This document shows positions 3,029 through 57,477 of a DNA stretch of 64,000 bases, one piece after another. How positions within the stretch are numbered: the stretch's first letter is position 1; the number at the start of each line of letters is the position of its first letter. The DNA comes from Sphyrna mokarran (Eukaryota), in assembly GCA_024679065.1 (NCBI GenBank), contig JAGIQG010000014.1, positions 4,340,001 through 4,404,000 on the forward strand. The letters are read 5' to 3'. The position numbers and the translations under genes are program-made. Under the pieces are notes generated by a model. The model was not told where the DNA came from and did no database searches. It saw nothing but the letters and a program-made list of their open reading frames with translations.

Positions 3029-3784
3029 TCAACTGGTCCAATTCAAGCATACGCTAACGACGTGAAGCACTAGGCTATTCTCGAAAAGTCAACAACAAGG
3101 CGGAGCGAAATACCTGTAGGATTGTCACACCAATTCGCGAGAGGGAGTGACTGCTCTCCAGCGTGTCCCACAATGCCTCCCAGCATCTTAAATCCCTTAC
3201 CTAATTCATCTCCAAAACATTATTCGTCCAATCAGACTTTGGAACATTTCAAAAAATCTTTTCGATTTCATATTCACTGCCCCGTCAATACCTCCAGTGC
3301 TGGTTATAGGGACAGCCCATATTTGAAGAATTGTCCACAGATGTTCCAGTTGAAGAATAATCAATTTAAAGACATTTAGCCCATATATTTAATTTAACAT
3401 TGCTCAACTTCATTCAAAATTCTGGCAACAAACGTCAATGTGGACGGCAAAGCTTCTCCACTCCAAACGCGTGCGTGTTAGATTGACTGGCCAGGGGAAG
3501 TTGCAGCTTCTTGTCAGGGAGCCGCACAAGCTAAATACGTGCAGTTAGCGGGATGGGCCTGGATGGGATTGTTGTTGGTGCAGAATCAGTGGGCTGACTT
3601 GCTTCGTTCTGTACTCCAGCGACTTCTGCACTCTGTTCCATGTTTTGTTTTGAGTTATCTGCACATTCCAGAATGGAGCAATTTGAGCAATTTCACTGAA
3701 GAAACGCAGCAAATCGCCGAAGACAGTATCTTTTAAACATACATGCACGAACATCTATAAGGACCATGGAAATCTATAAGGACC

Positions 3785-4893
3785 ATAGAACATAGAACAC
3801 GACAGTGCAGCACAGGCCCTTCGGCCCTCGATGTTGCACCGACCAATGGAAGCAATTTTATGACCCTCTATCCTAAACTATTCCAATGCTATCCGTATGC
3901 CTATCCACTGACCATTTGAACGCCCTTAAACTTGGCGAGTCCACTACTGCTGCAGGCAGGGCATTCCTCGCCCTTGCTACCTTCTGAGGAAAGAACTCAC
4001 TTCTAGCATATGTCCTATAACTACCACCCCTTAATTTAAAGCTATGTCCCCTCGTGCTATCCATCTCCATCCGAGGACAAAGGCTCTCACGATCCACCCG
4101 ATCTAACCCTCTGATCATCTTATATGTCTCAATTAAGTCACCTCTTAGCCTTCTTCTCTCTAATGAAAATAGCTTCAAGTCCCTTAGCCTTTCATCATAA
4201 GCCCTACCCATCATACCAGGCAACATCCTGGTAAACCTCCTCTGCACCCTTTCCAATGCCTCCACATTTTTCTTCTAATGTGGCGACCAAAACTATACAC
4301 AATATTCCAAATGCGGCCTCACCAGAGTTTTGTACAGTTGCAACATAACATCTCGGCTCCGAAATTCAATCCCTCTACCAATAAATGCTAACACACTATA
4401 CACCTCCTTAACAACCTTATCAACTTGAGTACCAACTTTCAGAGATCTATGCACCTGTATACCGAGATCTTTCTGCTCATCTACACTACTAAGAATCCCA
4501 CCATTAGCCCTATATTCTGCACACAAATTAATCTTACCAAAGTGAATCACCTTATACTTTTCCACATTAAACTCCGTTTGCCACCTCTCGGCCCAGCTCT
4601 GCAACTTATCTATGTCCCTCTGCAAACTGTAACATCCATCCTCACTGTTTACAACTCCTCCGACTTTGGTGTCGTCAGCAAATTTACTAACCCATATCTC
4701 TACACCCTCATCCAGGTCATTTATAAAAATAACAAACAACAGTGGCCCAAAAAAAGATCTCTGAGGAACACCACTAGTAACTAAACTCCAGGTTGAATAT
4801 ATCCCATCAACCACCACCCTCTGTCTTCTATCAGCTAGCCAATTCCTAATCCAAATTGCTATATCTCCCTCAATCCAGTGCATCTGCATTTTC
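3785..4893 (-). mobile_element. 5'-truncated CR1 LINE (RT C-terminal part and 3' tail), unit 1 only
   Basis: ORFs 4293-4922 (SGVPQ..GPLLF, KFADDTK, LYKTLVRPHLEYC) and 3873-4265 (LERVQRRFT, RRRLRGDLIE); (TTCTATG)n tail. Confidence 0.95.
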
Positions 4894-4914
4894 AGAGAAG
4901 CAGAGTCGTAGAAA

Positions 4915-5150
4915 TACCTCAATCTGGAAGTTTCTCTTCAAGTCACTCAACATTCTAACTTGGGAATATAGTGCCGTTCCTTCACTGTTGCTATGTCGAA
5001 TCCTTGAACTCCTGCCTAGCAGCACATGTGCCTACATCACATGGATCAGTCCTAAATGTCAGTTCACAAGCAACTCCTAAACGACAATTCTTGATCAGGA
5101 AGAAATGATGGCCGAACCTGCTATACAGAAACCTGGCTAAATAAGCTTAA
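4915..5150 (+). mobile_element. Old LINE 3'-end remnant (also at 30997-31230 and 63957-64000)
   Basis: CAAGTCACTCAACATTCTAACTTGGGAATATA..GCCGTTCCTTCACTG resembles a common elasmobranch LINE 3' end; in unit 2 its tail resembles that of the SINE at 46410. Confidence 0.6.
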
Positions 5151-5817
5151 AAATTATCATGTTGTGTGACTCTTTTCAATATGCATGTCTTTAAACATTT
5201 ATGATTGATGCTTCGAATCGTGCTGTGTCATTTTTTCTATTCTGTATATGCCGCTACTGGTTAACATATATAGAGTGAGCAACTATCGCATTATTTGCAA
5301 ACACAACGTTGTTTCACCAAACATGCGACTGTGATTCATTTGTAGAAGTAATTGATTCAAGATCGTTATGAAACCACCACGCGCAGCTAAAAGACAGAAC
5401 GATTATCTGATAATAAATGAGCACATTCCACTCCATTTCGTTGATGTGAGTCTATACTCGGGCCTAACGGTGAACTACAGTAAACAATGCTGAGGTTTTC
5501 GATCGATCACTTTCTGCACCGACATATGGAATGACTGGCAAAGTATTGCACCTAAAACAATGTCAGCACCTCTCAAGGATCGTTATAAAAAATGAAGTCT
5601 TATTTTAAACTGATGTTAACGGTGCAATTGAAAAACAAATGCTGAAGAAAATAGACATAAGATACTAAAGCATTGGAATCGGACCATCGAACATCTTTTT
5701 CGGGAAGGATGTTCGGAGGATGATTTTTGAATGGGGACGGGGACGATGCTCCTTTTCTGTCCTATTATTTCACGAGACAATTCGTGTCCAATTTAGGGTG
5801 CAGGCAGGAGTAGACTA

Positions 5818-6024
5818 TCAGATGCCAGCTTTTGGACTAGATGTCTGACTTTCCATAATTCTGTGACAGAACACCACTCCAACAGTACACCAATAGAGCA
5901 CAAGCCATGATTTCTGCGCACAAGTGAATTGGGGCCTGTTGTTCTGACTGAGGTGTTTGCAAAGCCATATTACAACACTGAGAAGAATAGTAGAGAATCG
6001 TTCAGAGATATCCTGGAGTATTTT
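5818..6024 (-). CDS. Candidate terminal exon of MS4A-like paralog 1 (KILQDISERFSTILLSVV...)
   Basis: Pyrimidine tract CTCTGTCTTTTTT followed by tandem AGs (GAGAGGCAG). The phase-0 frame after CAG is open to a stop at 5818. Other acceptors (6028 or ~6114) give short tails, so the call is uncertain. Confidence 0.35.
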   Translation of the reverse strand, partial: KILQDISERFSTILLSVVIWLCKHLSQNNRPQFTCAQKSWLVLYWCTVGVVFCHRIMESQTSSPKAGI

Positions 6025-6196
6025 CTGCCTCTCAGCCAAAAAAGACAGAGTATTAACTATTCATAAGCGCAATGTATTAGAGTACTCATTAATGACCATT
6101 GGAATTCATTTTCTTGTGAACAAAGTAAAGTTGAGACAAAAGTTCTTACTGTTCACTTCATCCATAAATATAATTAGAGCTTATGCATTTACCAAC

Positions 6197-6322
6197 CTTA
6201 TTGATTCGCATCTTAGAAATTCTGCACAGCATCACACACCCGACAATGGAAGCAGTGACTGAGACTGCGAGCTCTAGCAACGCTAGGCTCCAGAGGATGA
6301 CAAGGAAAATCCAGCAATAATC
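6197..6322 (-). CDS. MS4A-like paralog 1, TM4 exon (42 codons)
   Basis: GATACAG|GAT...AAG|GTTGGT; IFLVILWSLALLELAVSVTASIVGCVMLC followed by basic residues. Confidence 0.87.
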
Positions 6323-9300
6323 CTGTATCAGTGGTAAGAACATGTTAAGGACCATTGGAGTTAAGTAAAATGAATTGTGGCAAAAATATTTCTCACACTC
6401 CCTCTGACAGCATAATTGACTGCGATACTTATCCCAAAATATTCGGCAAAGAATATTTCAAACTGCGGCAAATTTAACAGGTTGGATGTAGGATTGACCT
6501 CCCTTAGTTGTGATACTGCATTAGTGAACGCTTGTTTCAAGCATACATGGTTTGCTGTCGAATCGAGTTCAAGGGAAAATTACATATATTGGCATTCCAT
6601 TTACCCACGTTTTTCGTTGTCTCAGATGGGGAATGATGGAGATCTGATTGACGAGTCCTGCTCAGGGAAGCAACAAAAAAATTATGTGATAGATCATTCG
6701 GTCAGTCTGTTCACGAGTCGGCTGACTTTATCATTTTTATCCATGGCTCCTGACCTTGCCCCACAGCTCTGCATTTGGCTATTATATGTATATCCAATTT
6801 GCTCCTTAAAGTCGGGGTCGGGTGGGGGGGGGGGTGGTCGTGGAGGGGGTTGATCTATTAACACCAGACAATTCAACCAGATTTGAGAATTTTGGAGAAA
6901 ATGCTTAATAATACAACAAACTGATGAGACTGGGAACATTTCCCTTAAATGTTCCTGCCAAGCAAAATCCTGGACGGTGATGTGTCAGTAATATTTAAAA
7001 ATGTGTACAGATTACTACAAGTCGCCTCCTTTTTTTGTAACTCCAAAATTAGAAACATCTGCTGACAAAAACAAAGCGTTCAATCGTTCTGGTATTTGGT
7101 GCTGGGGAGGTAGGATTTTGGTTTTGGGGCATTCACATGACAAATCGATGCTCATGTTTGCTTGTGCTTTTCAGTGGAAACTTCAGGGATGGTTGGGGAA
7201 AATCTCCTCAATGTCTCGTGCCTCTGGATTCACCTGTTCAAACGAGCATCTCACCGGTCAACCAGATTGCATGATTCGTAAGATTGAAATCAATCGATGC
7301 GTCCTTGCCAATGTAAAGTGTGCTCTTATGGTACTCTCCCTGAATCTGCAAATCAGAGGCTCGTGGTAATGCTGTTTGAACATCTTAGTTTTTTAAAGTT
7401 AGTTTTATGTTCGTTGCTAGGTTGAGCTTGTTTTTTGGAAGCATGTTGGTGTGGAATAGCAACACGGGATCAAGTTACTTCAGTACTAAGTATTGCCAGT
7501 ATGTCTATGTCAAATGAAACGAAAGGCTGACTGCTGATTTATACATTATTACGCTATTTTTAGATTGTATTACATACTTACAGGAAAGTAGCAGAAGGTA
7601 TCCACCTGTTTTAAAGCACAGAAATATCTTGAGATGCAAAAGCGGGCGTCAACATGAAACAGAAATAAATCCAGAGCCACCGCTAAGCCACTGGCCAAAT
7701 TCACCAATAGGCATTTCGTCACCTGAGAAGATTAAGCAGCAATTTTTCAGAAAACTGCTCATCATGATATCTCACAAAATTATTGGTTATTTGGATATTA
7801 AAAATTGCATTCGGTACATTGACCAAAGAGGTGAAAATTTATTTCAATAGCATTGCAAAATAATTTGAATTTATAATTATTTTGGTAGTCCGAAATAATC
7901 GTGAGCATTGCATTCTACAGAATGCGGCACTTTATACACATAGCAAATCATCAGATTTGAAGAATGAGGCCCCCTCTCAGCCGTGGAATCACGTGTTATA
8001 AATGTTCCAGAGCCTCTGTGCATCTTTGAGGAAACCCAAGCACGTGTATCCCAATGTTCGTTTCACTAAAGTTCCAATTAAACTTAAACTGTCATCATTA
8101 ATTTTCATTTTGATTCTCCGTCAAAATGCAAATGTGCAAATGCGAGCTAGCTACGCCAATTCCCTATCATTTATTTTACACGCTAACTGAATCCCCCGTT
8201 ATTTTAGCAACTTACTCTCTCACCCGTTATTTTAGCAACCACTTCACTAAAGAATTCACCATGAAGAGTCTTTATCAAATCACCATGTAATAGGCCAGTG
8301 ACAGAATGAACTTTAAAACAGTACTGCTCACAGTGAACTTTTGTTTCAGAGTAACGCTATATGTGTATACTTACACGATATTTGTTTCTGCCAGTTCCAA
8401 GATTAAACCACTGAGTTCCACAAACGATTACCTGGGATGAAAAGTACAAATGTTCATTCACTTGATACGACACATTGACCAAAAAGAAAAACTGCCTGAT
8501 ACGCTGCAGGAAAAGATGTCTCGAGGCACGGTACATGTTACGACAAGGAATGAACGGACACCGCTCGACAACCACCCTACAAGAGTGTTCCCCTTCTGTC
8601 AGTCAAGGGCATTGAACCTCCGATCTTCGGGTAAACGTTTTCCAAGGCGGCCTTCAAGACATCGGGCAACGCAGAATCGCCTAGCAAAAACTGATCGCTA
8701 AGTTCCATAAACATGAGGATGGCCTCAACCGGGATCTTGGGTTCATGTTACACTACGTATAACTCCCAACATTTGGTGTGGGCTAGCAAAATCCAACTAA
8801 CTGTCCTGGTTTGAGACAGTTCACAAACCTTTAATTATCCCTCTCTCCACTGGTATTGTCTGTTCCTGTAAAGCCTTGATTATCAGTAACGACTTGCATT
8901 CTAACTACTATCTTGCTATTTGAGTCTGTGTCAACATATGCACCCTATTTGTGAAGCCAACTCTCCACTCAACTGATGAAGGAGAAACATTCTGAAAGTT
9001 CGGGCTACCAAATTATCCTGTTGGAATTTAACTTGTTGTTTTAAGCCTTCTTTTTCTCCCATCCCTGTCCGACTCCGACATCTCGCATCACAACTACTAT
9101 CAACATTGTATCTCTATTTTTCTGTTTTTCATTCATAGGCTTGACCAGACTTGCCTGGCATGGATCTATATTTATACTGCAGTTTTTCTAGACGTTTTTC
9201 AAGTGTTTTTCTCAAGTTAAGGAAACAATAAGGAAATTGGACGAGAGCTGATAACTCCAAACAACTTGAGCTAACGTCGCTTTTTCATCAATTTAACAGG

Positions 9301-10202
9301 TCCCAAAAATGTAAGGGTTGGGGGCGAAACTGTGACACATGGGGGTCAGTGTATGTAATGTGAGCAGAAATTATGTCTTAACGTATAATTTGCCACGGGG
9401 CATTTTGCACTTAGTGGGAAGTGAGCGGCAATGGAGGCGTGGAGTGACGCCAGAGTTACTGTTGAAAGAAAAACGATGAAACCTATTGGTAAGATAGAGG
9501 GGTAACTGTGAAAATTCTATAAACGAGCCGGACATTGCCGTGGGAAGCCCCATTTCAAAACATGTGGATGAATGCAAATTTCAAATCATAATTAATACTG
9601 AAGAACATTGTGGCACAGACACAAGAAGGTTAAAAATCGGAAAATTCGGTTCATATATTAATTTCAATGTAGTTTTATACGAGTAGTTTTGGGTATTGGG
9701 AAAGGTGTCTTCTTATTACACTACAAAATAGAGGTCCAGATGATTTTATTTAGAGTTTCATCAAAACTGGTATTTTTAAAAAAGGGTGTGAAAAATCAGA
9801 GTTGCATTCTGGAGAACCAGGATTAAACATCAATGAGATGTGCAGTCAAGCAAAATCCAACATAGGTTCAATTATAACCAGTCCATGATCTGGACAAGGA
9901 ACTGTGACTTACCGACAGACCGCTGAACCAGTGCGTTCTGTAAATCCTTGAATTGGGCACCGGCATCGGAACAATTATCACCCAATAAAGAAAAAGCCGA
10001 TAGAGAATAAATAATATTCCCAAGACAACCTGAGTGACCTAAAACATGGAAAAGAACAAAGAAGGTAATATGCAAACAGGTGAACTGTATGAAATAAAGG
10101 AAAACCAAACAGTGCGTGTGAAGTGGATATGAGGCGGATGGGGTGAAGAGGTACAGGGATGGAATAGAAGGAGATGGAGGCGAGAGAGAGAGACTCTGTG
10201 TA

Positions 10203-10254
<52 letters not shown>

Positions 10255-11096
10255 AGTAGAAAATTTGATCAGGAAACAACAAAAGAAATCGTTAACGAGT
10301 TCACCAATACAAGGAATCGACATCATTTCAGAAGAAACAATCGTTGCATATATGTTGCATTGTATAATATGGTGAGCTGCATCTGCTGTCTACACTCTGG
10401 GAAACCGTCGGTGCATTTTGGGCAGCAATGATCAAAACGGCAAATACTATCATCTAGAATGACGGTTGATGGTAGGAGCTTTGCCATATCCAAGACCCGG
10501 CTAAATCACACAACAGCCTGCCTGAAAATATATTGCCAGCATGAAACCTTCCACTGTTGCCATGTTAAGGTTATGGGACTACCATCGTCAGAGACTCTGT
10601 AGTCATTCAAAATGACAATCCAGCCAAATATTATGAAGGGGCAGTTGGATATAGCATCATCAGCGACGCCCAGGTCTTCGGTATGACTGAAGAAACATCG
10701 AACTTTACTCCTGTATTTCTTCAAAATTATTTGAAACGAAACATACGAGTGATATTACTCAATACCTATGGATAACTACGGTCGTTAATGTTAATAACCT
10801 GTTGCATGATGTTCATGCACACAATCGTTAACACCATTTTGATCATTGCATGTTGTTTGTGTAACTTCGACAGCAAAGATTTTGAGCTTTCTGAATAAAT
10901 TTGAAACCCGAATAAAACAATGACGCAATCTTACACCCAGATGTTTCGTTGGTTCCAGCTTAATCGCTTGGATGATCGAGTTTCTGGCCTGTGACTGACT
11001 ATGGATGTCTCCACAAGTTGGTGAATCTTTTATACCCGACTGTAGGGATACATCGTGGATGGTGAATCCGGATTCAGCGCTCAGTGTGGCAGACAT
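6197..11096 (-). CDS. MS4A: MS4A-family (CD20-like) tetraspan membrane protein, paralog 1; core coding exons 11096-10935, 10038-9913, 8431-8375, 7722-7582, 6322-6197 (first and last exons uncertain)
   Basis: Five exons, all AG..GT bounded and phase 0 (162, 126, 57, 141, 126 nt), splice to a stop-free frame: MSATLSAESGFTIHDVSLQSGIKDSPTCGDIHSQSQARNSIIQAIKLEPTKHLG|VTQVVLGILFILYRLFLYWVIIVPMPVPNSRIYRTHWFSGLS|VIVCGTQWFNLGTGRNKYR|VTKCLLVNLASGLAVALDLFLFHVDARFCISRYFCALKQVDTFCYFP|DYCWIFLVILWSLALLELAVSVTASIVGCVMLCRISKMRINK. As recalled, this matches MS4A hallmarks: KxEPKxLG|xxQ before TM1, a 57-nt exon splitting TM2, xNxxS in TM3, LLExxVSxxxSxxGCxxLC in TM4. Family-level call only. Confidence 0.85.
7582..7722 (-). 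CDS. MS4A-like paralog 1, TM3 and large extracellular loop exon (47 codons)
   Basis: TCTTCTCAG|GTG...CCT|GTAAGT; VTKCLLVNLASGLAVALDLFLF helix followed by a Cys-containing loop. Confidence 0.85.
8375..8431 (-). CDS. MS4A-like paralog 1, 57-nt TM2-end exon
   Basis: CTTTTCATCCCAG|GTA...CGT|GTAAGT; 19 codons, same size as in unit 2 and as recalled for MS4A genes. Confidence 0.82.
8495..9090 (+). mobile_element. Penelope-like retroelement fragment (GIY-YIG C-terminus and 3' repeat) in an MS4A intron
   Basis: Translates LIRCRK...MNGHRS...SDLRVNVFQGGLQDIGQRRIA*QKLIAKFHKHEDGLNRDLGF; tail CTGATGAAGGAG...GAAAG. Confidence 0.85.
9913..10038 (-). CDS. MS4A-like paralog 1, TM1 / loop 1 / start of TM2 exon (42 codons)
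   Basis: TGTTTTAG|GTC...TCG|GTAAGT; VTQVVLGILFILYRLFLYWVII hydrophobic helix. Confidence 0.87.
10182..10250. repeat. Compound (GA)n/(GT)n/(GA)n microsatellite; counterpart at 36213-36300 with poly-G
   Basis: Direct reading. Confidence 0.95.
10935..11096 (-). CDS. MS4A-like paralog 1, N-terminal cytoplasmic exon (54 codons)
   Basis: Acceptor AG directly before ATG at 11096; ends ...EPTKHLG|GTAAGA; conserved in unit 2 with a 3-nt in-frame indel. Confidence 0.85.
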
Positions 11097-14000
11097 CTTT
11101 CAAATAATAGCCGATGTACCTTTCATGAAAAAAGGAGAATTTCTTAGTTTTGTTTTTAAATGCAAATATTTCACTTTTTAACGGTTGGGCATAATCTCTC
11201 AAGATACGTAACATTACAAACAACATAATAACAAATATAGGGATATATTTTGAGAACCACTTGAGTTCGATAGTTTTAAACCCGACATTTGTATGTCATG
11301 TAATTCATTTTTTGCCTTGCAATCACTGTCGATGTTCCAATCTAATAAATACCAAAGCAAAAAAAAAAACCTGAAGTCAAACTTCCTTTCCCAGTTTGAA
11401 GCATTGACAAGTGGTCAATTACTAATTTTTCATCTAATTCTTTAAAGTCGGAAGTTTGTGTTTCTCTCTCAGACCTGCATAGTGAAATGTCAAGGGCTTA
11501 CTCACCCAAAATAATTGTTGGCTGGAATGTCAAACGTAACTGTTACTTTCCAGACAATCTGCTTTATTCTACGCAAGCAATACCATGTGCTCATTCCACC
11601 GGAAGTTGCATCTTATCTTTGCTGGCTGTCATAGTAATCACAATAATTCAAACTTTAAAGCATTTGGCTGTTCAATTTGCACCGTCCATTTTACCAAAAC
11701 ACGCGTAAATGCATTGAGTAAATCTGATGTCCTGTTGAAAATATATAGGATATGATATTGCCCTATCTGTATTCTGTTCACTGCAATTATATATAAAAAA
11801 ACACAGTCTGCAATAATTTGTCAGGGAAATTTCCTGCGATTCGTCGAACAGGTACCCATTTCCCGGTAAATGCTTTTCCTCTCTTAATTTATTTCACATT
11901 TTCTCTCCTTACCTAGCTTTCTTTAATATTGGGAAAAGGTGGAAGGCTACAATATTTCCGAGTGGAAATGATACGACACCTAACTAATTAATAATTTCCT
12001 GGTTTATTGCACAATATTGATCCAACAACGTGGAACAAAAATACAAATACGTAGACTATGATCTATGCATTAATAAAAACTATCTAAATTGACATTGATG
12101 TGTAAACATACCAAGCTATATGGAAATACGCAAAAATGCGGTAATTCTGAATATAGGTAATAAGGTTTCAAAGACAGTACAGATTCTCAAAACATGTTCT
12201 ATGTTGAATATTTTAAACTCCTGATTAAATAATTATCATACCAAGATCGTAAGATCACATCATCAATCACAGCCAATTGCAACACCAAAATCCAATTACA
12301 TGCCTCAATAACAGAAACAGTTCCCTATAACGTTACCAGGTCACCCATCAGAAAAACTGATATCAGCAAAACCTCAGCAAAAAAGGAAATGTTCTTTCAT
12401 CATACATAGAGGAGCTGATGACAGAGCAACAACAACACTGTGATAAATTGTCTTTAATTCATCATAGAAGTTGTGGAGGAACCAAAATTAGATAATCTAT
12501 TTATGTAATCTGCCTACGAAAAGAAAGCAGAGTTAAATTATTTGTTTACTTATTAAATTAATGCCTGTTCATATTCTGGCCAACATCAGTTGCCTCGACT
12601 TATCCTCAGAATAAAATATTCTCTGTTAAGATTCTGATACGAGGAAGAATGAAAACAATAAGAAATTTGAACTTACACTTCATGAGAATTATCGCTTTAC
12701 ATCTGAGTCTGAGAACTGTTTTCCCTTCTTTTTGCTGAGTGAGTCTGGGCGCCCCCTCTCACCAGACCTTAGTTTCTGAGACTATAGAAAAAATGCACAG
12801 CCTGTTAATCACCCATTAAGTGAGCGGCATGGCATATAAAGAGTTACCAAGCAGATTTCCATCAAATCCAAAGTTACGCCTTGTATGTTTTTTGTAAGCT
12901 TTATTGAAACTTTATATGTCATGTAATCATTTTCTAAGAAATGTTATGAGTCATTTTTGAGAAGCATTCCGATTTCACGAGCTGAAGATTTAAATTTGAA
13001 GTTTTGTGTGCGCCTGCCAACCACTTAGCCACCTCTTAACATTATCTCCAAACATTTAGTGTCCTTTTTCGAGTTCTTTCTCTTTATCTTAATATTTGAC
13101 GTCCGCCGTATAATCTCAATTCTATTTATCATGAAAGTAGATTTCCTTGTAATTATAAACCAAATCAAAACCAAAATGTCCCACTTTGATGTAAATTTAA
13201 CATTCATCGAAGCTTCATGACATCTTTTCTTGATTAAAATTTCATAATTGATAAGAGGAACAATTTCTTACCGATGGGGTTGCATTATGTATCAAATTCA
13301 ATGAATTGTGAAACTGAAGTTTATTGATTTCGCTTTAACAAGGGCATTTTTTCTTATTTTAGATTGAATTAAATGCAAGTTGATTAATTAGATCTCTAAA
13401 AATCCTTATGTTTCCCTCTTTTTCCGAAGAACACATATTAGCGAACAATTCCACACAACTCAATACAAATATAATGATACATCAAACATGCTGATCGATC
13501 GATTCACTTCTGACCTGGCAAGCATCAAATCGAATAAACAGGTGGAATAAGCAGATGATGGAGATGGAATGTACTAAACAGTCCTGTCAGGCAAGACCAG
13601 ACTGTTGATTTTTGAAATACACATGAAACAATAGTTTTAAATTCGAATACAAATAATGAATGCACACCAATCAAATGATCGGATATATTTATACCCACTC
13701 ACGGTTATTGATTAGGGTTGCATCGTTTATAAGGGACAGGCATTAAACCGATGCTATTCACTTTACAGTTGCTCAATTATAATATCCAATCAGCGTTAGG
13801 TTTTTAATCACATTAGTAGAATATTGTTCCAACTAATTTTTGACAGTACAGCTGCATCTGAATATTAGAACAAAAATCATCGTAACATCGAGCCTAATGG
13901 TCTTTCCCAACCTAAGACTCCATAACTTCTTCTCTTCTTATCTGGAAGGATAATCAGTCATTCTAAAGCAGCTTATTAGGTAAGAATATGCAATATCTAT

Positions 14001-14574
14001 CTATCTATCTATATACGTATATATATGACTACTAATACTATTGTCTATAATTACTAGTTTATGAATTATTCTCATAAACCAACTTATTTTGACTGAACCG
14101 CAGCCCCAAGATGTCAGTGTAGCAATGTCAGCACAGAACCTACAAAGAAATGGTAGTTACAGTTGGATTAGTTTTCCTGACATTAATTTTCAGGCTGAAA
14201 GTTTCCAATAGAACAGGTACTTTAATACCGAAGCACTTGCGTTTAACGCATTGATGTGAGGTTCTAAGTTTGAACAATCCTGTAAAGGGGGCGATATCGA
14301 ATAGATTTTTGTGGGCAAACAGGAGGTGGGAACTAAGGTTGGGCGGAATGAGGAATATCCAGATCATTCCGCTAAGACCAGCACACAAATGCCCAACCTG
14401 GAAATTGGCTCTTTGTTCCCAAGAAAATGTTATCGCGTCGGAAATGGAAATCCAATGACAAATATGAAGTCGCCAGTTTACCTCCTGCGTTATTTGTTAA
14501 CCAAAAATGCTCCCTGCCTTGTTTCATTCCAGGGGAAACTTGTGTCACCCAGGCAGTGGTGGTGTTCGTGAGAG

Positions 14575-14615
14575 AGGGTGAGGGCGGGGTGTAATGGGAA
14601 TAAACCATTGGCATC
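14575..14615 (-). promoter_or_regulatory. Possible CCAAT box plus GC/CACCC box
   Basis: GGGTGAGGGCGGG..(~18 nt)..ATTGGC conserved in both units (40928-40963); motif evidence only. Confidence 0.3.
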
Positions 14616-14728
14616 CTGTTCACTCCTGTTTTCCAAGTGGTGCATTGTCAGAGTCGTCCTCGGATGCAGAGTTTTGTTGGTTGATGATCATTTCAGAATT
14701 TGAACTCATTCTCCCCAGAGCTCAACTG

Positions 14729-14797
14729 TGGCGGCGCGGGCTCGTTGGGCCGAAGGGCCTGTTTCCCGTGCTGTTTTGTTCTTTATCCTTTGAACTG
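14729..14797 (+). mobile_element. Short CR1/SINE 3' tail insertion (unit 1 only)
   Basis: TGGCGGCGCGGGCTCGTTGGGCCGAAGGGCCTGTTTCCCGTGCTG; CpGs retained; absent at ~41090. Confidence 0.75.
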
Positions 14798-15487
14798 AAT
14801 GTAGAACAGAACAGGCGAGGTAACAGAATTCCTGCAGTAACAACTACCACTAATTCAAGTCTGGAAATTGTACTTAGAACACCACATGAAGATCGGTTGC
14901 AGGATGAGAGTGTGATGAGACTTAAAACAGACTATGTTACGGTGCTGGTTTGCATAAGGAAAGGTTTTGAATTCAATTCCATTTATCTATTGCATTCAAA
15001 ATGTGACCTGAAATTAGCCAGTCCACCGCGAGAAATACTCACAAACTTCAAATGTCCTTGTGATATTGCAGACATGATTAATTTCAAGGGTAGAATTTGG
15101 TCTATGCGCTAACATTTGAGACCCGACTTTAATTCAATGAGAGTATCTTTCATCCGCCATTTCTCCAAAAATCACCCTGTCTATTGCGTGGCTCATCATT
15201 TGATAGAAGATTTTGAACTAAATCAAATGGTAAAATTTTGATATAAATGGGAATACATAGTTCGTAAAATATAGTAACCACGAATTCGCAAATAGTGGGC
15301 TTTCAATTTTAATCTTAATTCTCAAAATTGTGAAGTTCCTCAAATTGTCTTAAGCGTATTTTTGTTACAAACCAACTGAATTTAATTTAAAAAAGTGACT
15401 TTCTTCTAAACGTTCTCTAGAATGGTGATAACACTGGGGGACGGGGAATGAGGTGGAGGGAATTGGGAGATGTGATGTTCCACTTAC

Positions 15488-15634
15488 TTCCTGATTTCCG
15501 ACTCTTGGTTTGGCTGGAGGAGATGATAAATTCCATTGTGCAACCTCTGGTCGTTGCTCAATGTCAGCTCCTAACTTGATCATTTCAATGTCAATCTCCA
15601 TATTCAGATTTCCTGAAATTGAGGTCTGTTCCAT
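15488..15634 (-). CDS. Candidate upstream exon of paralog 1 (MEQTSISGN...AKPRVGNQE), either an in-frame N-terminal extension or 5'UTR
   Basis: Strong Kozak gccATGg; phase-0 donor GAA|GTAAGT conserved in unit 2; acceptor TTTTACAG at 15656-15657; would join in frame to the exon at 11096. Confidence 0.5.
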
Positions 15635-18476
15635 GGCCAGTTCTATCTAGAACTGCTGTAAAACCTTGCATCTTCGATGCTCCATTTCCTATCTTATTGT
15701 TGTCTTGAGATCACTAAATTGCTCGAAGCATTTGGCAGCAAAACAGATAAGAGAACGGCCATTTATTTTGCCTCACCATTCAGACTTCTTGTTGCAGAGA
15801 TAAGATAATGCTCTACCCATCCAGGACAACTATAAGTTGTAATACAATTAATAGCAGTCTGGAATGAATCTGTTCCTATATGCGCGACAAGGAACCTGTC
15901 ATTTATAATACTTGTAAAAACGCTCCTGATTCACTTACCTCTAAGGAAGAACGTAGGTCAAACTTACCTGCAGGTGACGTTGGATCCATAGAACCTTAGT
16001 TAACTTCAGAAATGACACAGCGAGACATTCGGTTAGTATTAACATAATTCTGGGATCATTCTCATGAGATGGGTTCCAGCAGCTGATGAACGTGTTGCCC
16101 GCAACCTTTTCCAACCAATTAAGGATGAGAAATGCATGTGACGGTCACAACTCTGCAAGAATTAGGCAAAAACATACAAATGTCTAACTTTCCAAGTAAT
16201 GATATCTAATTCTCAAACAATCATGGGTGAGCTGGTGTTTACATCCTGAGGTTAAGTGTAGGAACGACCTATTACAGCGCCGAACCAGATTAAATTATCT
16301 GAATTATTATGCTCGATACCAAAATGCAAAATTCGTGATCATTGGCTGTCACGAATCGGAGCGTGTTTACAGAAACTGTAAACTTATTTTCCACAAGTCT
16401 GGTATAGATTCTATGAGGTTGAAGTGTTGGTGTGCATTCTGGAGGTTGTAATTTATCTGGTGAAGTATTTTGACCCATAATGAAGTGGAATAGAAACTGT
16501 TTAATCAGCACAACCATTTACAGTGGTGCAAATAATCCATTTCTTAATTGCTCGAATCTCCTGCGATTGCTGCAGGGGTTTGGACGTATGGTACCAAATA
16601 TATACACGTCAATGGGATGCTGGGTCAATAGACCAAATTACAAACTTTTGTGTTGTTTTTTCTTTGGAGAATTGCTGACAACAGTCTTGAGGTTTTGGAT
16701 TTCAGTCCAGATTCTTCTTTTCTTTTGCCAAATAATTTCATGACTGCTGGAGGAAGAGGAAGTTTTCACTATCTTACTTCTTGTTCTCATTTCTGTTCCT
16801 TTAATGACAGATGTGCAGCTTCTGAATATACTTTCAATATCTAGAATCTGCTACGAGGCAAATGTCTAACCCATTAAACAATAGATGTTTGTGTCTTAGA
16901 CGCATAACTTTGACCTGTATCTAAACCGAGATGGCCTATTACCTCGTCAGAGACGCTGAGAATGTGAAAGCAGGAAACAAATTAAGAATATTAGCTTAAT
17001 ATTGTCGTCAGGCACGTATTGCTCACATTAACTATGCATTTAGTCCATCTTCCATTCGCATCTGTTTAAAACTATTCCACCTGAATAAATACGGAAACAC
17101 TTGAGCACCGAACTAAAACCACAGTCTACCATCATTGTCAGACTGCTGAACCACTGGGTCTCTGATATTGTTCATCTGCAGTCGAATGCATCGTTCACAA
17201 GTAGAGATCGGCTGAAGGAAGTGGCTGCTTTTTCCGTTACACTTTATGATTGCACGGCAACCAATCAGACTGAATGTTGCTTATCTGAGTGTTAAGAAAA
17301 ATTCTCTAAACTTAAGTGACGGCAATTATAGGGTAATAAAACAGCTATGCATAAAGTAACCTGTGGAAATTGGCTGATATGTATGACAGCAGAGCAATCA
17401 GGCATTTATGGAGATATTTCGTCACTCTAATTTCCTGAGTACTTCACGGATGTCGGATCCTTCTGCCAGATTTATTTTACAAGTTTAATACAACATGATA
17501 GAATTTAAAGATGAATGAGAGCACATTTACCATGCTGCCTTGATTAAATGTAGGCCAGACGAATGGGCAAAAATCTACACCAGCAAAGGTTGAGGAAGAA
17601 AAAGACAGTGATATAAATTCGAACACGATAGAATATAGCAAGTTATGTGAAAATACAAGTTCCCTTAAGTGCATAGAAAGGAACATATATTCACGGCTGG
17701 GTTGAATGGGTTGGCTGTAATGTAGCTACATTTTCCTATGGTGCAAAGAAGGAAACCAAATGGTGCAAAGTGTAGGTCAAGTGATTGGAGTGGCCTCGTG
17801 AATTGACAGAAATCTGGACACCAGGCAAGGCAAAGCGATAAAGTATCAAACTGCCGAAGCCGAAGAGGGATGGAATGCTTGAGACTGGAGAGTGTTGGTG
17901 AGGCTGAGGTTAGGTGAGATATACGTGGTAGGACTAGACTAAGGCTGATTGAAGTTGCCCAGCATTACATAATGCATTTGGCACTATGTTTTGTTTGAAC
18001 TCCCAGAATCCTTCACTTTATGAATAGCATTCACAGACTTCCCCCGCGTGGAGGACCCGGAGACGGTGTTGAAGTGGCCCAAATTCAGGCCAAGAGGGAG
18101 TTGGCAGAAGATCTGGGAAAGGCGGCATCTTCAGCGTGAGATAACTCGAATTCTGGATCAAGGCGTTCTCAGTTCAGACGTAGAAAGAAAGAAGGAAGTG
18201 AGTATCGGGAACGGAGATGGAAAGAGAAATGTCCACATATTTTGACCGGGACTTCGGCGTTGTCAGTTCAGTGAGGAACCCTGGTGACAAGACTGGAAAG
18301 TGTACATGATTTGCATCCGCATTCAGGATTTCAGATATTCAGGGAGTGAGCTCGGTTTGAGCCAAAAACCTGGTTCAATTTGGAGAGTCCAGGGAGGGCA
18401 ATATTCACTCGCCGGTTAAATCTATTTTGTCAGGTTAAAATATTTACATATAGAAAGAAATTCCGAGGCTACCCTT

Positions 18477-18637: not shown

Positions 18638-18687
<50 letters not shown>

Positions 18688-19273: not shown

Positions 19274-19678
19274 CAATTGAATCAATTATACGTTATACTG
19301 GTATAGATTCCGATGGATGTGATTACCGAGTACTCGGCGGGCATTTTATTATCAAACAATCCAAGAATGGCTTCTCAGTCTTTGGATTCACCAAAGATTT
19401 TCTTAGCCTCTTAGCAAAATTACATTGACGTAGTTTTGAAAGACTCTCCCTGTAATTACACAACTTGTGAACAAACCAGCTCAGGGGACTGGGGGCTTTA
19501 GCAATGTTTTTGCTCTCTTCCAGATTCTTATCAGCCTGTGATTCGGCCAAAGACGGAGATTCGCTATAACCAAACAGCCAAATAATAGGAAAATGCTAAC
19601 AGGGAAATCGGCTGCTACCAGTTCATGTAATGTTGTAGAGCAACCAGGGAAGTTCGCTGTATCGCTGTTCGAGTAGGA

Positions 19679-19757
19679 GCTTGCATAACTCAGTCGGTAT
19701 ATTTTTCATCTGAGGATACAGGATTCAACTCTCTGTTCAAGTTTAAAAGCAGCGCCC
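19679..19757 (+). pseudogene. Decayed tRNA-Lys(UUU) inside the inverted block
   Basis: ATAACTCAGTCGGTA...TCTGAGGATACAGGATTCAACTCTCTGTTC; internal deletion; 3' end flipped. Confidence 0.7.
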
Positions 19758-22398: not shown

Positions 22399-22402
22399 GC
22401 AT

Positions 22403-22475
22403 CGCCCGAACAGGGACTTGAACCCTGGGCCCTCAGATTAAAAGTCTGATGCTCTACCGACTGAGCTATCCGGGC
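22403..22475 (-). tRNA. trnak-uuu: tRNA-Lys(UUU), intact
   Basis: Reverse complement GCCCGGATAGCTCAGTCGGTAGAGCATCAGACTTTTAATCTGAGGGCCCAGGGTTCAAGTCCCTGTTCGGGCG matches the canonical vertebrate tRNA-Lys3 gene (as recalled) except U47C. A and B boxes are intact, a T5 terminator lies 4 nt downstream, and a TATA-like TATAG sits near -30. Confidence 0.97.
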
Positions 22476-23590: not shown

Positions 23591-24188
23591 AGATAAAGTC
23601 TGTACTTTCAATTTGAAACTTTAGGTAATGATGGAGGATTTAATTGCCCCGATAATTCAAAATTTGTCAATGAAAAAGCTCTCAGTCCATTCTTGAAAGC
23701 AAAGTTTTTACAAAGCATCGCAATGCCTGAAAAGGTTCAACATGAATTATGTAAATATCACAGAATGAAATATATTTGAATTTTAAGTATCCATGGAACC
23801 AATTGCGTTATGTTACAGATTTTTAATTGGACTGAACAAAAAAATCTGAGAATAGCCACGCTGAAAGGCCTGGATGATATTCACAATCTCATATTATCAT
23901 TCAATATAACTTGAAACATCTGGAACGGAAAAATAGCTTACAATCAGAAGCAGATTAGAATTTTCCAAAGTTCCCATTTAAGAATCTTAATGCGATAACC
24001 ATGAGTTCCTTGTGGACTCTGGGTCAGTATTATTCAAACACGACAGCACACAACGCTGAGAACCAAATGTTGCAGAAATAGATTGGAACAGATCCAGCTT
24101 TGAATGTCCAGGACAGAGACAAAGTCACCAGGACACTCACTCGACGCATGAAACAACGTGTCGATTGAGAATGGAAACCTGAAAACAA

Positions 24189-32123: not shown

Positions 32124-32286
32124 CTCGCAACCAACAAACACGGAGTATCAACTGTTCATATGCACAACGAATAAAGAAACTCACTCGTGTGTTCACAAGA
32201 AAATCCGTTTCAATAATCACTGAAGTTGAGACAAAGGTTCTTGCTGTTCACTTCATCTATATATCAGAGCTTATGTATTTACCAAC

Positions 32287-32412
32287 CTGACTGATTTGCA
32301 TCTTAGAAATTCTGAACCGCATCACACACCCGAGAATGGAAGAATTGACTAAGGCTGTTAGCTCCAGCAGCGCTAGGATCCAGAGAATGACAAGGAAAGA
32401 CCAGCAATGTTC
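32287..32412 (-). CDS. MS4A-like paralog 2, TM4 exon (42 codons)
   Basis: GTACAG|GAA...CAG|GTTGGT, open frame. Confidence 0.87.
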
Positions 32413-51041: not shown

Positions 51042-53353
51042 AGAATTTCCTTCACCAGGACCAAAACGTTGTTGCCGAATGTAGACTTCCATTGCTCCAT
51101 GATTGTCCTTTGCAGCACGTGTGTTCTGCAGTATGGCTAACCAGAATTATCTCAAAACTGAGCGTCACTGGAGGTGCTAAGATGTAATGTTTTACAGGTT
51201 GACAATAAAACGCACGTGTATGACACGAAAGCTCCCTCCTGCGCATAGGCGAGTTAAACGAGATTTATCTATTTACTCAGTGACAGCCACTCTGCTTTTT
51301 ATTCCTCACTCCTTGAAATAAAAAGTACATCACGTTTGCAATGGAATTTGAGTATTTTATTTCTACACGACTATTTTTGTTTCTATGTTACTCGGCTAGT
51401 CTCCAATAGATCACTGACCATCTACTCAGAACGTCCATAGGTCTGAAATGGGTAGTTTCCTCTCCTGAACATCATGTGCCACCATTTTGTGCACTGACTT
51501 CAACCTGCAGTGGTTCTTTGCAATTTTATGCTCCCATCGACATTTTCTACTAGGCCACCAAAGCGGTTTAATGCATCATTTTAGACTTGAGGTTCCTGTT
51601 TATTTGCTTCACGTACAGTGAAAAAAGTGCACCCAGTACATATCGTTCAGTTAAACTCTGCATATCGCTGCAATAAAGCTCCCAGTTTGAGTGTGTGTCC
51701 ATTATCCCTACATTTTCTCTACGACATATCACCCAATGTCTTTCTGAAAACAAATAGGTTCGTTCGAACTGGGTGTGCTTTCCCTCTAGTTCCCAATCAA
51801 ACATTTTCCGATGTCCCCGACAACTTTTGAATTGAAGATAAGGAAATTGTTTGGACACACTTCTTTCCAAGTGGAACTTTTCTTAAAAGTTTCAAGGTGT
51901 TTTTTTCAATCCAACTTACCAGTAATTAATCCATGATGGGATCTTCAGATGATGTCTGTACGTTCGAGGCAGAATGTACATAAGGAACTAAAGGTCTGAG
52001 CATTGGAAAACTATTGAAGAAATGTTTGGCACTAAAAGCGTGTGAACTCCCAGGAACTTATTAATTAACATCTGCAAATACTGAAAATAGGACACTACTG
52101 TGAAGGAAAGGCATATAGGGAATTACAGGATCACTTAGACAGAAATTGACAGTTGGGTAAGCGTGAGAGGAGGAATTAAGGTAGTTTCTTACACTTTAAC
52201 AGAATAACTGCATTTACATTAAAACAATATCTGCACTTCCTCTTTCATGGAGCCACACAAAACCAAACACGTAATATTAGCCTCGTTGTGATCCATTAAA
52301 GAATTGAAGTGATAGGTGAACATAGAAAGGACAGAGCTTCAACCTGTACAATAGAGTTCAAAAGAACACTTAGTGGGCAACCAGCCCACCGCGAACATAG
52401 AATAAACAATGTGAAAAGTGCAAGTGAACGCCTGTTTCACTTGAAAGATGGAAGAGATGGTTACACCTCTTGGCGAACATAGTCGATATTTCCCGGTTAA
52501 CGGCACAACTCACTGTGGTCTTCACCCTTTCTTTGGCAAATCAACTTTGAAACATGCCTCTTGTATTTTGGCAAGGTTGTGGCCATCTGCTTAAATAAAA
52601 GCTGCATCACGTTATTATATAGAAGGCGTGTTCAGTATGAAGACGAAACTCCCGCATCCGAATCATTCAGATAGCAAGTTCTGCCTTATTAACAGTTTTG
52701 TCTAAAAACATTTGAATTTTGCTGTAAATCTATGTAAGATACATACCTCTTTTTACGGCCCTTTTCACCATCGCTCCAATGTTGCCTTTCTACTTCAGAC
52801 ATGAAGTTACCATGGAAACTAATTTTCATCCGAAAAGCCCCTACAATGACGAGATTATCTCCCTTGCTGATGTTGATTAAGAATATGCTCTGACACGATG
52901 GCTAATTCCTCATCTCCTTTGGAAACAGAATCTTGGCAGCATACAATAAATCTCTTCTGAGTGAGTTACAATTGTAATACTCTGCCAGTAGAGGGAGTAT
53001 CCACTTGTCAAATAAACTCTTTGAAACAACAACGAAATAAACTAAAGTTTCAAAATAAAAGAACGAGACTGCAAAGTTCAAACTGTCTATGAAATGTGAC
53101 AATCAAATGAGGGTTGAAAACTTGTGTCATTAAAATGAAGTGACAATGAAATTCCTGCCGTATCGTTAAATCTCAAAGAACTTTGTGGAGTGCATAGTGA
53201 TAAGAAATTAGATAATCTTGAATGACAACTTACGAAACTAGGTCAAAATAACTCGCAGATCAATAAAGGAGCGGGACTTACAATTTCTGAGAGAGAAAAG
53301 GATGACTTCTGTGCTGCGACATGAATAGAGATTTTGTTCAAGTTTGAAAGCAG

Positions 53354-53419
53354 CGCCCGAACAGGGAGTTGAATCCTGTATCCTCAGATGAAAAAAAATA
53401 TCGATTGAGTTATGCAATT
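53354..53419 (-). pseudogene. Decayed tRNA-Lys copy
   Basis: CGCCCGAACAGGGAGTTGAATCCTG...CTCAGATG...GATTGAGTTAT; counterpart of 19679-19757. Confidence 0.75.
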
Positions 53420-53851: not shown

Positions 53852-53925
53852 CGCCCAAATAAGGAGTCGAACCCCGGAGACTCAGGTTAAAAGCCCTTAT
53901 GCGCTCCTGGCTGAGCCATCTGCCA
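53852..53925 (-). pseudogene. Decayed tRNA-Lys copy, present only in unit 2
   Basis: CGCCCAAATAAGGAGTCGAACCCC...CTCAGGTTAAAAG...CTGAGCCATC, followed by a T4 on the minus strand. Confidence 0.7.
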
Positions 53926-55669
53926 GATGTGTGATCTGTTCCAGCGTTGAACCAGCCACTCGTTTACAGTGAGTTGTCATTTGAAAGAGAGGACGCTGAG
54001 ATGTACATAGGACCCTAGGGACATGGGGTTCATCTCCATATAGTCCTGAAAGCAGCCAGTAAGGTAGATAAAATGGTTAGCTAGGCACATGGACTATCCT
54101 AATATATTAAACAAAGCGGAGGTTATGATGAAGGTTATGATGAAGCTGTATATAATGCTTGATGAGTTCCAGCTACATTATTCCATAGTCTACAGAATTC
54201 TGGCTTGACACTCTGTTTTGAGAGTGATTTCGCTGGAAGGGGTACAAAAGATATTGACCACGAAGTTGCCTCTATTGAGGAATTTCAGCTATGTAGATCG
54301 GTGAAGATGGTGCTGTTTAACTCAGAGGTGAAAAGTTTGAGAGTTGCTGATTTGTTCTTTGTCATGGAAAAGTGTGATGCCATCCACTTTGAGATTTAGA
54401 AAGATAAACTATTTGCCATTTTCATCTCAGAGTGCTGAGTATGTGATATATTTGGCAGAACAAGGTCCTCATTAAATCCTTCAATTTCGATCCTTATTCT
54501 GTCTTTCTTGTGCGAAGTCCAACAGTAATTCAGCCTTGCCTTCGTTTGTTAATGCACTTGTCCCATAAACGTTGTGCGACCTTTCTGCGCATTTCACTGA
54601 ATAACTTTTGAATTCGAAACTTTTGAACTGTGCGAGATCATGCTTTTTCTGAGGTCCAAAGCACGTAGGAATTTTACATAAATGGAAGAGCACATAGGAG
54701 TATTGACAGGCACAGCAATCTGGACGTGCATGTCCACGGATCACTGAAAGTGGCAACAAAGTGGATAAAGTAGACAAGAAGACATATGGCATGCTTGCAT
54801 TCATTGATCGAGGCATTGAGTTATAATTTAAAAAATGCATGCTATGCTGCTGCTGTACAGAACCTTAGTTAGGCCTCTTGCAGATTATAGTATGCAATTC
54901 TAATCGCTACACTACCAGAACAATTTGGATGCGTTGGGGAGGGTGCCGAAGATGTTCCCTATATCATTGCCTAGACTGGAGGGTTTTACATATGAGGAAA
55001 GTTTTGCTCTCACTGAAACAACGGAATTTGAGAGATGACCTGATGGAGATTTACAAATTATGAGTGACATGGACAGAGTGGATAGTCAAATGCTGTTACC
55101 TACGGTAGAAAAGTTAAGTACTAGGGAACATAGATTTAAGGTGCATAGGAAAAATTTTAGAGAAGATATGCAAGACTTTTCTTTTACACAGGCGATGTGA
55201 ACACACTGCACGGGAATGTGGTGGAAGGTATGAAGCGGTATTTACGTTGCAACTCGATGAATACACGAGTAGAATGGGAATGGAAGGATACGGACTCCAG
55301 AAGTGCATGCAGTTTTACTTTAACACTTAAAACGTACTTTAACATTAACTGAAAACTGACTTTAACTAAACATCATTTAATTGAAAATAGATACTATCGA
55401 GGTTATTTGATAATCTTTCTCTCGGTTAGAATGGAGTTCGATCGTTAATCTTAAAATAATCATCACGAATTCCTTGTGGATTTGGAATATCATTACTTTT
55501 GTTGAAGAGCACTTGGAACCTCATAGCAGACAAGGTTGAGAACCACCGGGTGCAAAATTGGATTGCAATGAATCTGCGTTTGAATGCCTGGAGCAAACGC
55601 AAAGTGACCAGTGGCTCACTTGACACATGAAAGAGTGTGACTCGATTGAGAATGGAGGTTTAAAAGCAT

Positions 55670-55742
55670 CGCCCGAACAGGGACTTGAACCCTGGGCCCT
55701 CAGATTAAAAGTCTGATGCTCTGCCAACTGAGCTATCCGGGC
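55670..55742 (-). tRNA. trnak-uuu: tRNA-Lys(UUU), probably intact
   Basis: Same as 22403-22475 with two D-loop changes (CAGTTGGCAGAG); stems intact; T4 terminator. Confidence 0.9.
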
Positions 55743-57477
55743 TCTGGTGCTGAAGTTGCGGAGCGCCCTATACTGGCCTGTTTGAAGATAGCATGGTTGA
55801 AGTTTTGCATTCCTTCTCGCTATCGTTCAAAATCTTCAGATTGTTTCTATCACACAAGTATTCGCCATTGGGTTTGAGATAGTCACTGCCTTCCTCTCAA
55901 TTATACAGCACTCTCACTCAAACTTCATTGCCTCGCCAAAACTTGGTTGACGAATTATTGTCAGAAAACCCGAATCCTTCTAAAGAAAGCCAACTCCGAG
56001 CATTCATTTTTAAACATTGTTTTGTGTTGGCCATTATTCCTGTGAAGGTCGACGTGAGACAGTGATGCTGCAAGAATGTGGGGTGAAGGGTGGGGGTGCG
56101 GGCGGTCGTACAGGAATAGAATGATATAGAGAAATAAGTTTCAAACAGTAACTCATTGAAGTCCTTATTTATGCATTTGCTCCGGAAACATCACTGTAAC
56201 ATAATAAACGGACCCTAATTTACTCCAAAATTTGAGACAGCTACCTGATTTACAGCAAACCAACGATATATTCAATAACTCATTTAATTAAAACAGACCA
56301 GTAGAGAATAAGTAAGGGATGTGTCCGCTTTGTAAACCCTTCTAAATGCAGAAAGTGGGAAATGAGCATCTCCGTTCAACATTTTTGTCTGTATTGCAGG
56401 GAACGAGAATTGCTCCGAAGGAAAGATTACCAAGTGAAAAAAATACTGGACCACAACTTCTTAATGATTCTGTTATCCAGTCTTGGGGAAGCAGGAACAA
56501 ATCTGAGTCCGTGGGCAGAACAGCAAACGAGAAAAATCTCATTTCGAAAACATGTTTTACATCACTGCAGTTCATGTGGTATAGTTATTCTTATAGTACT
56601 TTTGGGAAAGATGTTCCAGCAATTAAAACCAACAACAGTTTAGGAATGTTTGATATCGTTCAAAGTGAAGATGTAGATGTAGATGTAGGCGCAATGATTC
56701 CAAGAGCATGGCAAAACAGCACACCATAATAACTTCTTTTAGAAGACATTTTTGACATCGCCGCAGTTCATGCGGTGCAGCTACTCGTCTGTTACTTTGG
56801 GGAAGGAAGTTCCCGTACTTGAAGCCAACAAAGCGAGGGAATGGGTGATGTCGTTGAAAATTAAGATAAAGTCTTAACTTCCAATTTAAACATTTAGGTA
56901 GTGATGAAGGATTTAATTGCTCCGATAATTCAAATTTGTCAATGAAAATACTCTCAATCCAATCTTGAAAGCAAAGTTTTTACAAAGCATCGCAATGCCT
57001 GAAAAGTTTGAACATAAATTCAAATATATTTCATTCTGTGATATTTACATAATTCAAGTACCCATGGAACCAATTGCGTTATGTTAGAGATTTTTAATTG
57101 GGCAGAATAAAAAATATCTTAGAATAGCCACGCTGAAAGGCCTGGATGATATTCAGAATCTCATATTATCATTCAATATAACTTGAAACATCTGGAACGG
57201 AAAAATAGCTTACAATCAGAATCAGATTAGAATTTCACAAAGTTCCCGTTTAACAATCTTAATGCGATAACCATGAGTTCCTTGTGGATTGTGGGTCAGC
57301 ATTATTCACGCTGAGGAGAAATTCCAACGCGACAGCACACAACGCTGAGAACCAAATATTGCAGAAATAGATCGGAATAGATCCAGCTTTGAATGTCCGG
57401 GACAGAGACAAAGTCACCAGGACACTCACTCGACGCATGAAACAACGGATCGGTTGAGAATGGAAACCTGAAAACAA

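Follow-up and report, generated by a model that had tools for sequence, protein, structure and literature searches.

How often does a short piece of DNA turn over in place, and does the answer depend on where in the genome it lies? The question is raised by a window of 64,000 nucleotides from the shark Sphyrna mokarran (positions 4,340,001-4,404,000 of contig C446, which is 82.5 Mb long in a genome of 2.77 Gb). By self-alignment this locus consists of four ancient paralogous units, each 25-33 kb long: three in tandem (U1, U2 and U3) and one inverted to the left of them (U0), with Kimura two-parameter (K2P) distances of 0.16-0.21 between unit pairs. An earlier note on the sequence had listed about ten segments which are reverse-complemented between U1 and U2 relative to their colinear flanks, and considered this number high. 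We report that such in-place inversions of 16-100 bp (hereafter flips) are 15-60 times denser per substitution in a domain of at least 1.1 Mb than in the sampled rest of the genome, and that they arise, rather probably, by a double template switch. The whole analysis concerns one genome and one assembly, of which 2.06 Mb (<0.1%) were sampled, and uses a purpose-written detector, which looks for anti-diagonal seed matches close to the colinear path and scores how much the alignment improves when a segment is flipped in place.

Flips among the paralogous units and in same-genome controls

All ten listed segments are genuine in-place inversions of micro-inversion size (<=125 bp). Their identity is 78-100% when flipped (e.g. 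47/59, 65/76 and 38/38) and 32-62% when kept colinear; flipping raises the alignment score by +20 to +115, against -15 to +1 for a control in which the segment is reversed only, without complementation. The count of about ten was nevertheless too low, since three further flips separate U1 and U2 (marked as new in Table 1), which brings the number to 13 over 21.5 kb of alignment columns. The bounding arms that had been described, TTGG..CCAA, TGTTC..GAACA and AATT..AATT, are all present in the sequence, and none of the ten segments overlaps the four exons which we located or the two tRNA-Lys genes, the gene model being incomplete. Short-read contigs (run X1), compared over window 4900-18400, cross three of the ten sites (5823, 6091 and 11205): over 5514-6725 and 10433-11525 they are identical to the window. 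Paralogous contigs of the same run display strand-change joints at 10962/11023 and 17431/17505.

A second assembled copy of the locus (C446:338,858-408,030) carries another version of the middle unit, M2. The five lineages U0, U1, U2, U3 and M2 form a near-star tree with a total length of 0.53, and the detector was run in an inversion-aware comparison of all 10 lineage pairs. It returned 81 pair-events at a gain of at least 20 in 28,248 mismatches and 0 with the reverse-only null. Together these events make up 32 distinct sites, which are 16-101 bp long with a median of 37; another 4, weaker and at gain 12, are not included. The counts are lower bounds: in the U1-U2 pair the detector missed two of the ten listed sites, one of them at an alignment break. 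The rate in the units is about 2.6-2.9 flips per 1,000 substitutions, and the frequency over the domain is about one per 350-600 substitutions.

Each of the 24 sites visible in several pairs shows a single odd-one-out lineage, and no site was flipped twice among the five lineages. Clumping along the unit is not significant (p=0.30), and chained events within one lineage were rejected for the units (4 close pairs for 2.1 expected, p=0.14). The exact length is kept in 27 of the 32 flips, and 12 of the 32 detected segments are no longer than 30 bp. Terminal arms of at least 5 bp are found at 12/32 flips compared with 15/189 flips that were planted irrespective of arms (p=5e-5). At the 24 polarised sites the arm of the derived copy is longer than the ancestral one in 12 cases, shorter in 5 and equal in 7. 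The template-switch signature proposed in the earlier note thus stands as far as the enrichment of short inverted repeats is concerned; as to the mechanism it is unproven, because break repair by microhomology would give the same product. The flips look like neutral mutation and not like a switch. A recombinase-driven inverton would call for shared long recognition arms and for both orientations to persist at one site, whereas the arms measure 2-12 bp, differ at every site and accompany flips that are each private.

The rate was compared with other sequences of the same genome, both paralog pairs and repeat copies, and lies above both. In a tandem cluster of immunoglobulin (Ig)-domain genes on contig C772 at the same divergence (K ~0.18), the 16 alignable pairs contain 0 flips at gain >=20; restricted to independent pairs, the contrast is 16/6,133 for the units and 0/6,003 for this cluster (p=2e-5). 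No flip reaches the same gain in a tRNA array 180-380 kb to the left, of which 160 kb could be scanned (10,529 mismatches to the nearest partner). The 628 alignments of repeat pairs drawn from 50 random 10-kb loci contain 0 flips. Planted flips of the observed sizes were recovered in 189/260 cases in the Ig-domain control and 72/105 in the repeat pairs. Two candidate causes were rejected on such samples: tRNA genes, because the array with 127 tRNA calls has no flip at gain >=20 (weak hits, 4 for 6 in the null), and chromosome ends, as five 40-kb contig-end samples hold 1 unpolarised candidate in 10,184 mismatches.

The pooled controls amount to 3 candidates in 72,565 mismatches (4e-5), so the claim of a high rate holds by a wide margin over a same-genome background of about 4-5 per 100,000 substitutions. 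The earlier note had left a lineage- or locus-specific process as alternatives; the locus-specific one is retained. A high micro-inversion rate throughout the animal is highly improbable: the Ig-domain cluster, the tRNA array and the random-locus repeat pairs show 0 flips, so the excess is not lineage-wide, and the pooled control value is near the lenient human-chimpanzee figure of about 8e-5.

Dependence of the excess on chromosomal position

To separate position from unit sequence we used dispersed repeats: repeat copies in the sampled stretches were aligned to copies elsewhere in the genome. Low-complexity hits, gains below 16, the flip at window 57018 (one of the ten listed) and the second assembled copy (M) were excluded; the latter holds one further repeat flip, in its divergent unit. 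Between 4.24 and 5.34 Mb of C446, where 97,370 bases could be scanned with 14,394 mismatches to the nearest partner, we counted 12 repeat-copy flips. They lie at 4.252, 4.281, 4.282, 4.293, 4.462 (two), 4.809, 4.811, 5.027, 5.332, 5.333 and 5.333 Mb. Outside, 439,680 bases and 56,033 mismatches yielded 3 candidates, of which two rest on a single partner and one is half ambiguous. The inside/outside ratio is 15.6 (confidence interval (CI) 4.2-86, p=1e-6), and a further ratio, of the hot region to other loci, is 63 (CI 18-338). Widening the boundary to 6.05 Mb gives 12.5; the stretches sampled after the hypothesis was formed give, on their own, 12.5 as well (6 vs 3, p=4e-4), and counting clusters once gives 7.3 (p=3e-3 with the boundary widened too).

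The excess thus tracks chromosomal position and not unit sequence, and the hot zone spans at least 1.1 Mb (C446 ~4.25-5.33 Mb), far exceeding the duplicated units. The orientation of each of the 12 repeat flips is private: 0 of the 5-62 spanning copies share it (16/261 copies are ambiguous). A trait of repeat subfamilies was therefore rejected, no other copy having any of the flipped states. Because half of the divergence of each repeat pair accrued outside the domain, the repeats give a per-branch rate of about 1.7e-3, near the value of the units. The process is not confined to ancient times: one flipped repeat is 93% identical to its relatives and matches exactly once flipped, and a second flip is a perfect 39-mer within a tract of ~7% divergence.

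The left edge lies near 4.16-4.25 Mb, with 0 flips for 3.0 expected in 4.16-4.24 Mb and 0 for 6.3 in the repeats of the tRNA array. On the right side the interval 10-78 Mb gives 0 for 3.8 expected; the samples at 5.65 and 6.0 Mb are underpowered. As a side observation, inverted repeats with 10-bp arms reach 100 per 100 kb at 4.16-4.24 Mb compared with 10-32 elsewhere, yet 0 flips were detected there.

Candidate mechanisms and known systems

Apart from the flips the mutation spectrum of the units is ordinary. Compared with the Ig-domain control, the transition fraction is 0.63 vs 0.61 and adjacent doublets are alike; the GC bias that would signal high recombination is not raised (equilibrium GC 0.354-0.363 vs 0.355 in the single control cluster); gap-size classes are alike (10-49-bp gaps, 11.9 vs 11.0 per 1,000 mismatches), and inverted-templated gaps are not raised (2/310 vs 4/227). 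The density of inverted repeats in the units, 179 per 100 kb vs 171-229 in the main controls, is ordinary too, for which reason hairpin-rich sequence was discarded as a cause.

Two models of micro-inversion formation are described in PMC8755829: in one the template is switched twice at the fork, in the other a break is repaired through microhomology. Under the former, which we favour, the growing strand would jump at one 3-7-bp arm onto the opposite parental strand. It would then copy backwards to the other arm and jump back, leaving a length-neutral flip. The domain could be hot through germline fork stalling or uncoupling, as in a replication-timing or fragile-site-sized domain. Its size is similar to that of a replication domain; this likeness and the absence of break-related signs are why template switching is preferred over break repair.

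Several results weigh against this reading, or against a uniform domain. The 12 repeat flips fall into no more than 7 clusters; when the comparison is limited to clusters from post-hypothesis stretches it falls to 3 vs 3 (p=0.04), with a CI of 0.8-47 that includes 1. Repeats inside the units show 0 flips for 3.3 expected (P=0.04). Displaced reverse-complement copies, sought with the in-place flip sites excluded, number 1 for 1 in the null over 1,162 bubbles, events below ~12 bp being undetectable at this divergence; since these copies are not raised and the inverted-repeat density is ordinary, general template switching is not simply raised. Finally, arms of 3 bp or less occur in 12/32 flips, and such arms are argued, in PMC8755829, to be too short for two polymerase jumps.

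The same hot domain could instead act through double-strand breaks. In the break-repair model of PMC8755829, a break within the segment is repaired by invading the sister chromatid through microhomology; such breaks would be frequent here and perhaps meiotic. This model tolerates the very short or imperfect arms of 12/32 flips and yields in-place flips only, matching the lack of displaced copies; the region is, moreover, rich in rearrangements (one unit and a 1.45-kb segment are inverted, and the second copy differs in its paralog content). We consider it unlikely all the same, though a serious contender: equilibrium GC, 10-49-bp gaps and doublets equal to the control give no sign of a high load of recombination or breaks, and the five contig-end samples are cold. 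Two close cuts followed by reversed re-ligation, i.e. end joining after SPO11-type double cuts or topoisomerase errors, would require no arms at all, and meiotic double cuts include sizes of 30-100 bp, in line with such a process. We give it little credence, as it predicts extra small deletions, which are not raised, and has to face the enriched arms, the length neutrality of 27/32 flips and the 12/32 segments of at most 30 bp.

Another reading dispenses with a single domain: the sequence or gene family of the unit would itself be flip-prone, and the nearby repeat flips would reflect chance or small local patches. The grouping of the repeat flips in 7 clusters and the lack of any in the 4.60-Mb sample and in repeats within the units would suit it. 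It is nonetheless quite improbable, given the ordinary inverted-repeat density of the units, flips which span 4.25-5.33 Mb and reach a distance of 0.9 Mb from the units, and repeat families which are unflipped everywhere else. An assembly or alignment artefact can scarcely be the explanation. The second assembled copy is gap-flanked, and the reads of run X1 may come from the very sample that was assembled; against this stand the exact short-read contigs over three sites, the strand-change joints in paralog contigs at two, the 99.8% identity at which the second copy repeats U1, and the empty reverse-only null. We thus retain the double template switch in a position-bound domain as the probable explanation.

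Comparison with published systems bears on how unusual this is. Human and chimpanzee differ by 59 definite micro-inversions genome-wide (PMC8755829) or, by lenient criteria, by 0.98 per Mb (PMC3227671). At a divergence of 1.2%, this corresponds to about 2e-6 to 8e-5 per substitution. In the accessible parts of these papers the human-chimpanzee events are likewise in-place and length-neutral, ~15-100 bp long, with short flanking inverted repeats; their largest regional excess is that of chromosome Y, 2.2-2.4-fold (PMC3227671), whereas the units of the shark domain reach 2.6-2.9e-3 per substitution. The avian hotspot loci CLTC and CLTCL1 (1.56-1.58 vs 0.25 per Mb per My, ~6x background; PMC3123225) likewise have a locus-specific excess without a motif or stem-loop explanation. 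That excess concerns a handful of introns in two genes, where individual sites flip recurrently; in contrast, the shark excess is 15-60-fold, follows position over at least 1.1 Mb and shows no site hit twice among the five lineages. In-place inversion is among the products of the four-point template-switch model (PMC7954356, PMC9435742), as here. In apes, according to PMC7954356, the majority types (1-4-3-2 and 3-2-1-4) give single inverted repeats and length is kept in 5.5%, unlike the shark domain, where the increase concerns in-place flips and does not extend to detectable displaced copies. The mutation type and hotspot loci are thus already known, and a position-bound domain of such size and strength is new as far as we found: a literature search that left out most subscription journals returned no published work on shark micro-inversions or on a megabase flip domain.

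Features of the locus and implications of the domain

The features of the locus are collected in Table 1. The 1.45-kb inversion encloses three micro-inversions and was probably derived in U1. The second assembled copy is gap-flanked and corresponds to window 6558-64000 and beyond. Its identity to the window is 99.8% at the left end and ~99% or more at the right; in between, divergence climbs smoothly from 0 to ~19% over window 33-41 kb and is again ~0 by 52 kb, and M2 clusters with U3 and not with U2. This copy likely represents a second haplotype whose paralog content differs, shaped by unequal exchange or by long balancing selection.

Table 1. Features of the locus in window coordinates (negative values lie to the left of the window)
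Feature	Position	Strand	Counterpart, state and remarks
U1, tandem paralogous unit 1	1-25027		starts ~-493, outside the window
U2, unit 2	25995-58311		K2P 0.169 to U1
U3, unit 3 (start)	58311-64000		continues to ~window+86 kb
U0, fourth unit, inverted	-33 kb to -1.5 kb		
1.45-kb inversion	19557-21008 (U1)		relative to U2 53541-52106; U0 oriented as U2
Flip, 58 bp	28781-28838		derived in U2 (counterparts 3239-3297 and 61654-61712 mutually agree); arms TTGG..CCAA
Flip	5823-5857		derived in U1 (U2 31899-31933); within exact short-read contig
Flip	6091-6122		derived in U1 (U2 32190-32221); within exact short-read contig
Flip	37252-37293		derived in U2 (U1 11205-11239); ~110 bp upstream of start codon
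Flip, 16 bp	38517-38532		derived in U2 (U1 12449-12464)
Flip, 47 bp, new	41049-41095		derived in U2 (U1 14706-14730)
Flip	43565-43588		derived in U2 (U1 17248-17271)
Flip, ~76-86 bp	17425-17510		derived in U1 (U2 43746-43818); strand-change joint in short-read contig
Flip	19734-19762		unpolarised (U2 53335-53363); arms TGTTC..GAACA; nested in 1.45-kb inversion
Flip	19922-19951		unpolarised (U2 53147-53176)
Flip, 19 bp, new	20040-20058		unpolarised (U2 53040-53058)
Flip, 40 bp, new	21116-21155		unpolarised (U2 54390-54429); arms TGAGAT..ATCTCA
Flip	57016-57059		derived in U2 (U1 23745-23782); tRNA-array homologue agrees with U1
Flip, 28 bp	45746-45773		derived in U2; arms CATTGAT..ATCAATG
Ancestral-state site	45301-45339		perfect 39-bp flip in second copy at C446:378657; tract ~7% divergent
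Flip, 27 bp	51154-51180		between U2 and U0, unpolarised
First coding exon, membrane-protein gene	36978-37142 (U2)	-	U1 10935-11096; open in U1, U2, U3 and second copy
126-bp hydrophobic exon	35961-36086	-	U1 9913-10038; AG/GT-bounded, indel-free in 6/6 aligned copies
Hydrophobic exon candidate	32283-32372	-	open in 4/4 aligned copies; 5' end uncertain
Likely last coding exon	27751-27892	-	conserved stop codon
tRNA-Lys(TTT), U1	22403-22475	-	
tRNA-Lys(TTT), U2	55670-55742	-	

Each unit carries a multi-exon membrane-protein gene on the minus strand, and U1 and U2 also a tRNA-Lys gene. In U0 the first coding exon is broken by a 60-bp flip which creates a stop (window -17923 to -17856), and the last exon carries a stop as well; the flip probably helped to destroy this gene copy. 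A resemblance of the gene to MS4A/CD20 genes is suggested by sequence as a lead only. The 126-bp exon resembles at its start the CD20-positive exons that lie 0.55-0.8 Mb away (7/15 identical, with a two-sequence E of 0.001), and an atlas query pointed to an MS4A3 cluster at 0.79, a value that falls short of the reliable range. Single exons had no match to Pfam CD20 (PF04103); searches for PDB, homologue or structure hits returned none, and a scan for synonymous bias did not pick out the unit exons. CD20-family exons lie elsewhere on C446 (3556240, 3595237 and 3808822), and at 4.47 Mb (4473568) the unit gene has a fifth, more distant paralog.

The units are flanked on the left by an oxysterol-binding-protein (OSBP) gene and on the right by a 7-transmembrane receptor gene, which consists of a single exon and counts among at least 126 relatives across the genome, with many on contigs C960 and C994. 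The tRNA array (C446:3960001-4160000) contains its 127 calls per 200 kb mostly as Lys(TTT)/Thr(AGT) pairs in ~1.8-kb units with several orientation changes. The combination of OSBP, tRNAs and MS4A is reminiscent of human 11q12, and chr11:58.4-61.3 Mb is presumably the human counterpart. A conserved human hotspot was rejected: in 60 of the 195 chr11 rows of S2 Data of PMC7954356 this interval holds 6 ape template-switch events, 2.1 per Mb vs 1.4 per Mb for chr11.

How micro-inversions form is still unsettled, in part because the events are too scarce for study, as the count of definite human-chimpanzee cases illustrates (PMC8755829). In this domain the five paralogous lineages supply 32 events over ~25 kb and the repeats another 12, while other loci of this genome serve as a matched cold background. 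The domain is a natural place to separate fork template switching from break repair. A rate that follows position over a megabase also bears on alignment and on the use of micro-inversions as rare phylogenetic markers, and the process can alter gene content, one flip having put a stop into a gene copy. If our reading is true, the domain flips any resident sequence, and has done so from the origin of the paralogs into recent times, without raising substitutions, indels or other detectable template-switch products. Vertebrate chromosomes may then have megabase domains with a flip signature of their own, the mark of a germline process not described before, which would be bound to a region and specific for in-place inversion, a generalisation which we put forward tentatively, at slightly less than an even chance.

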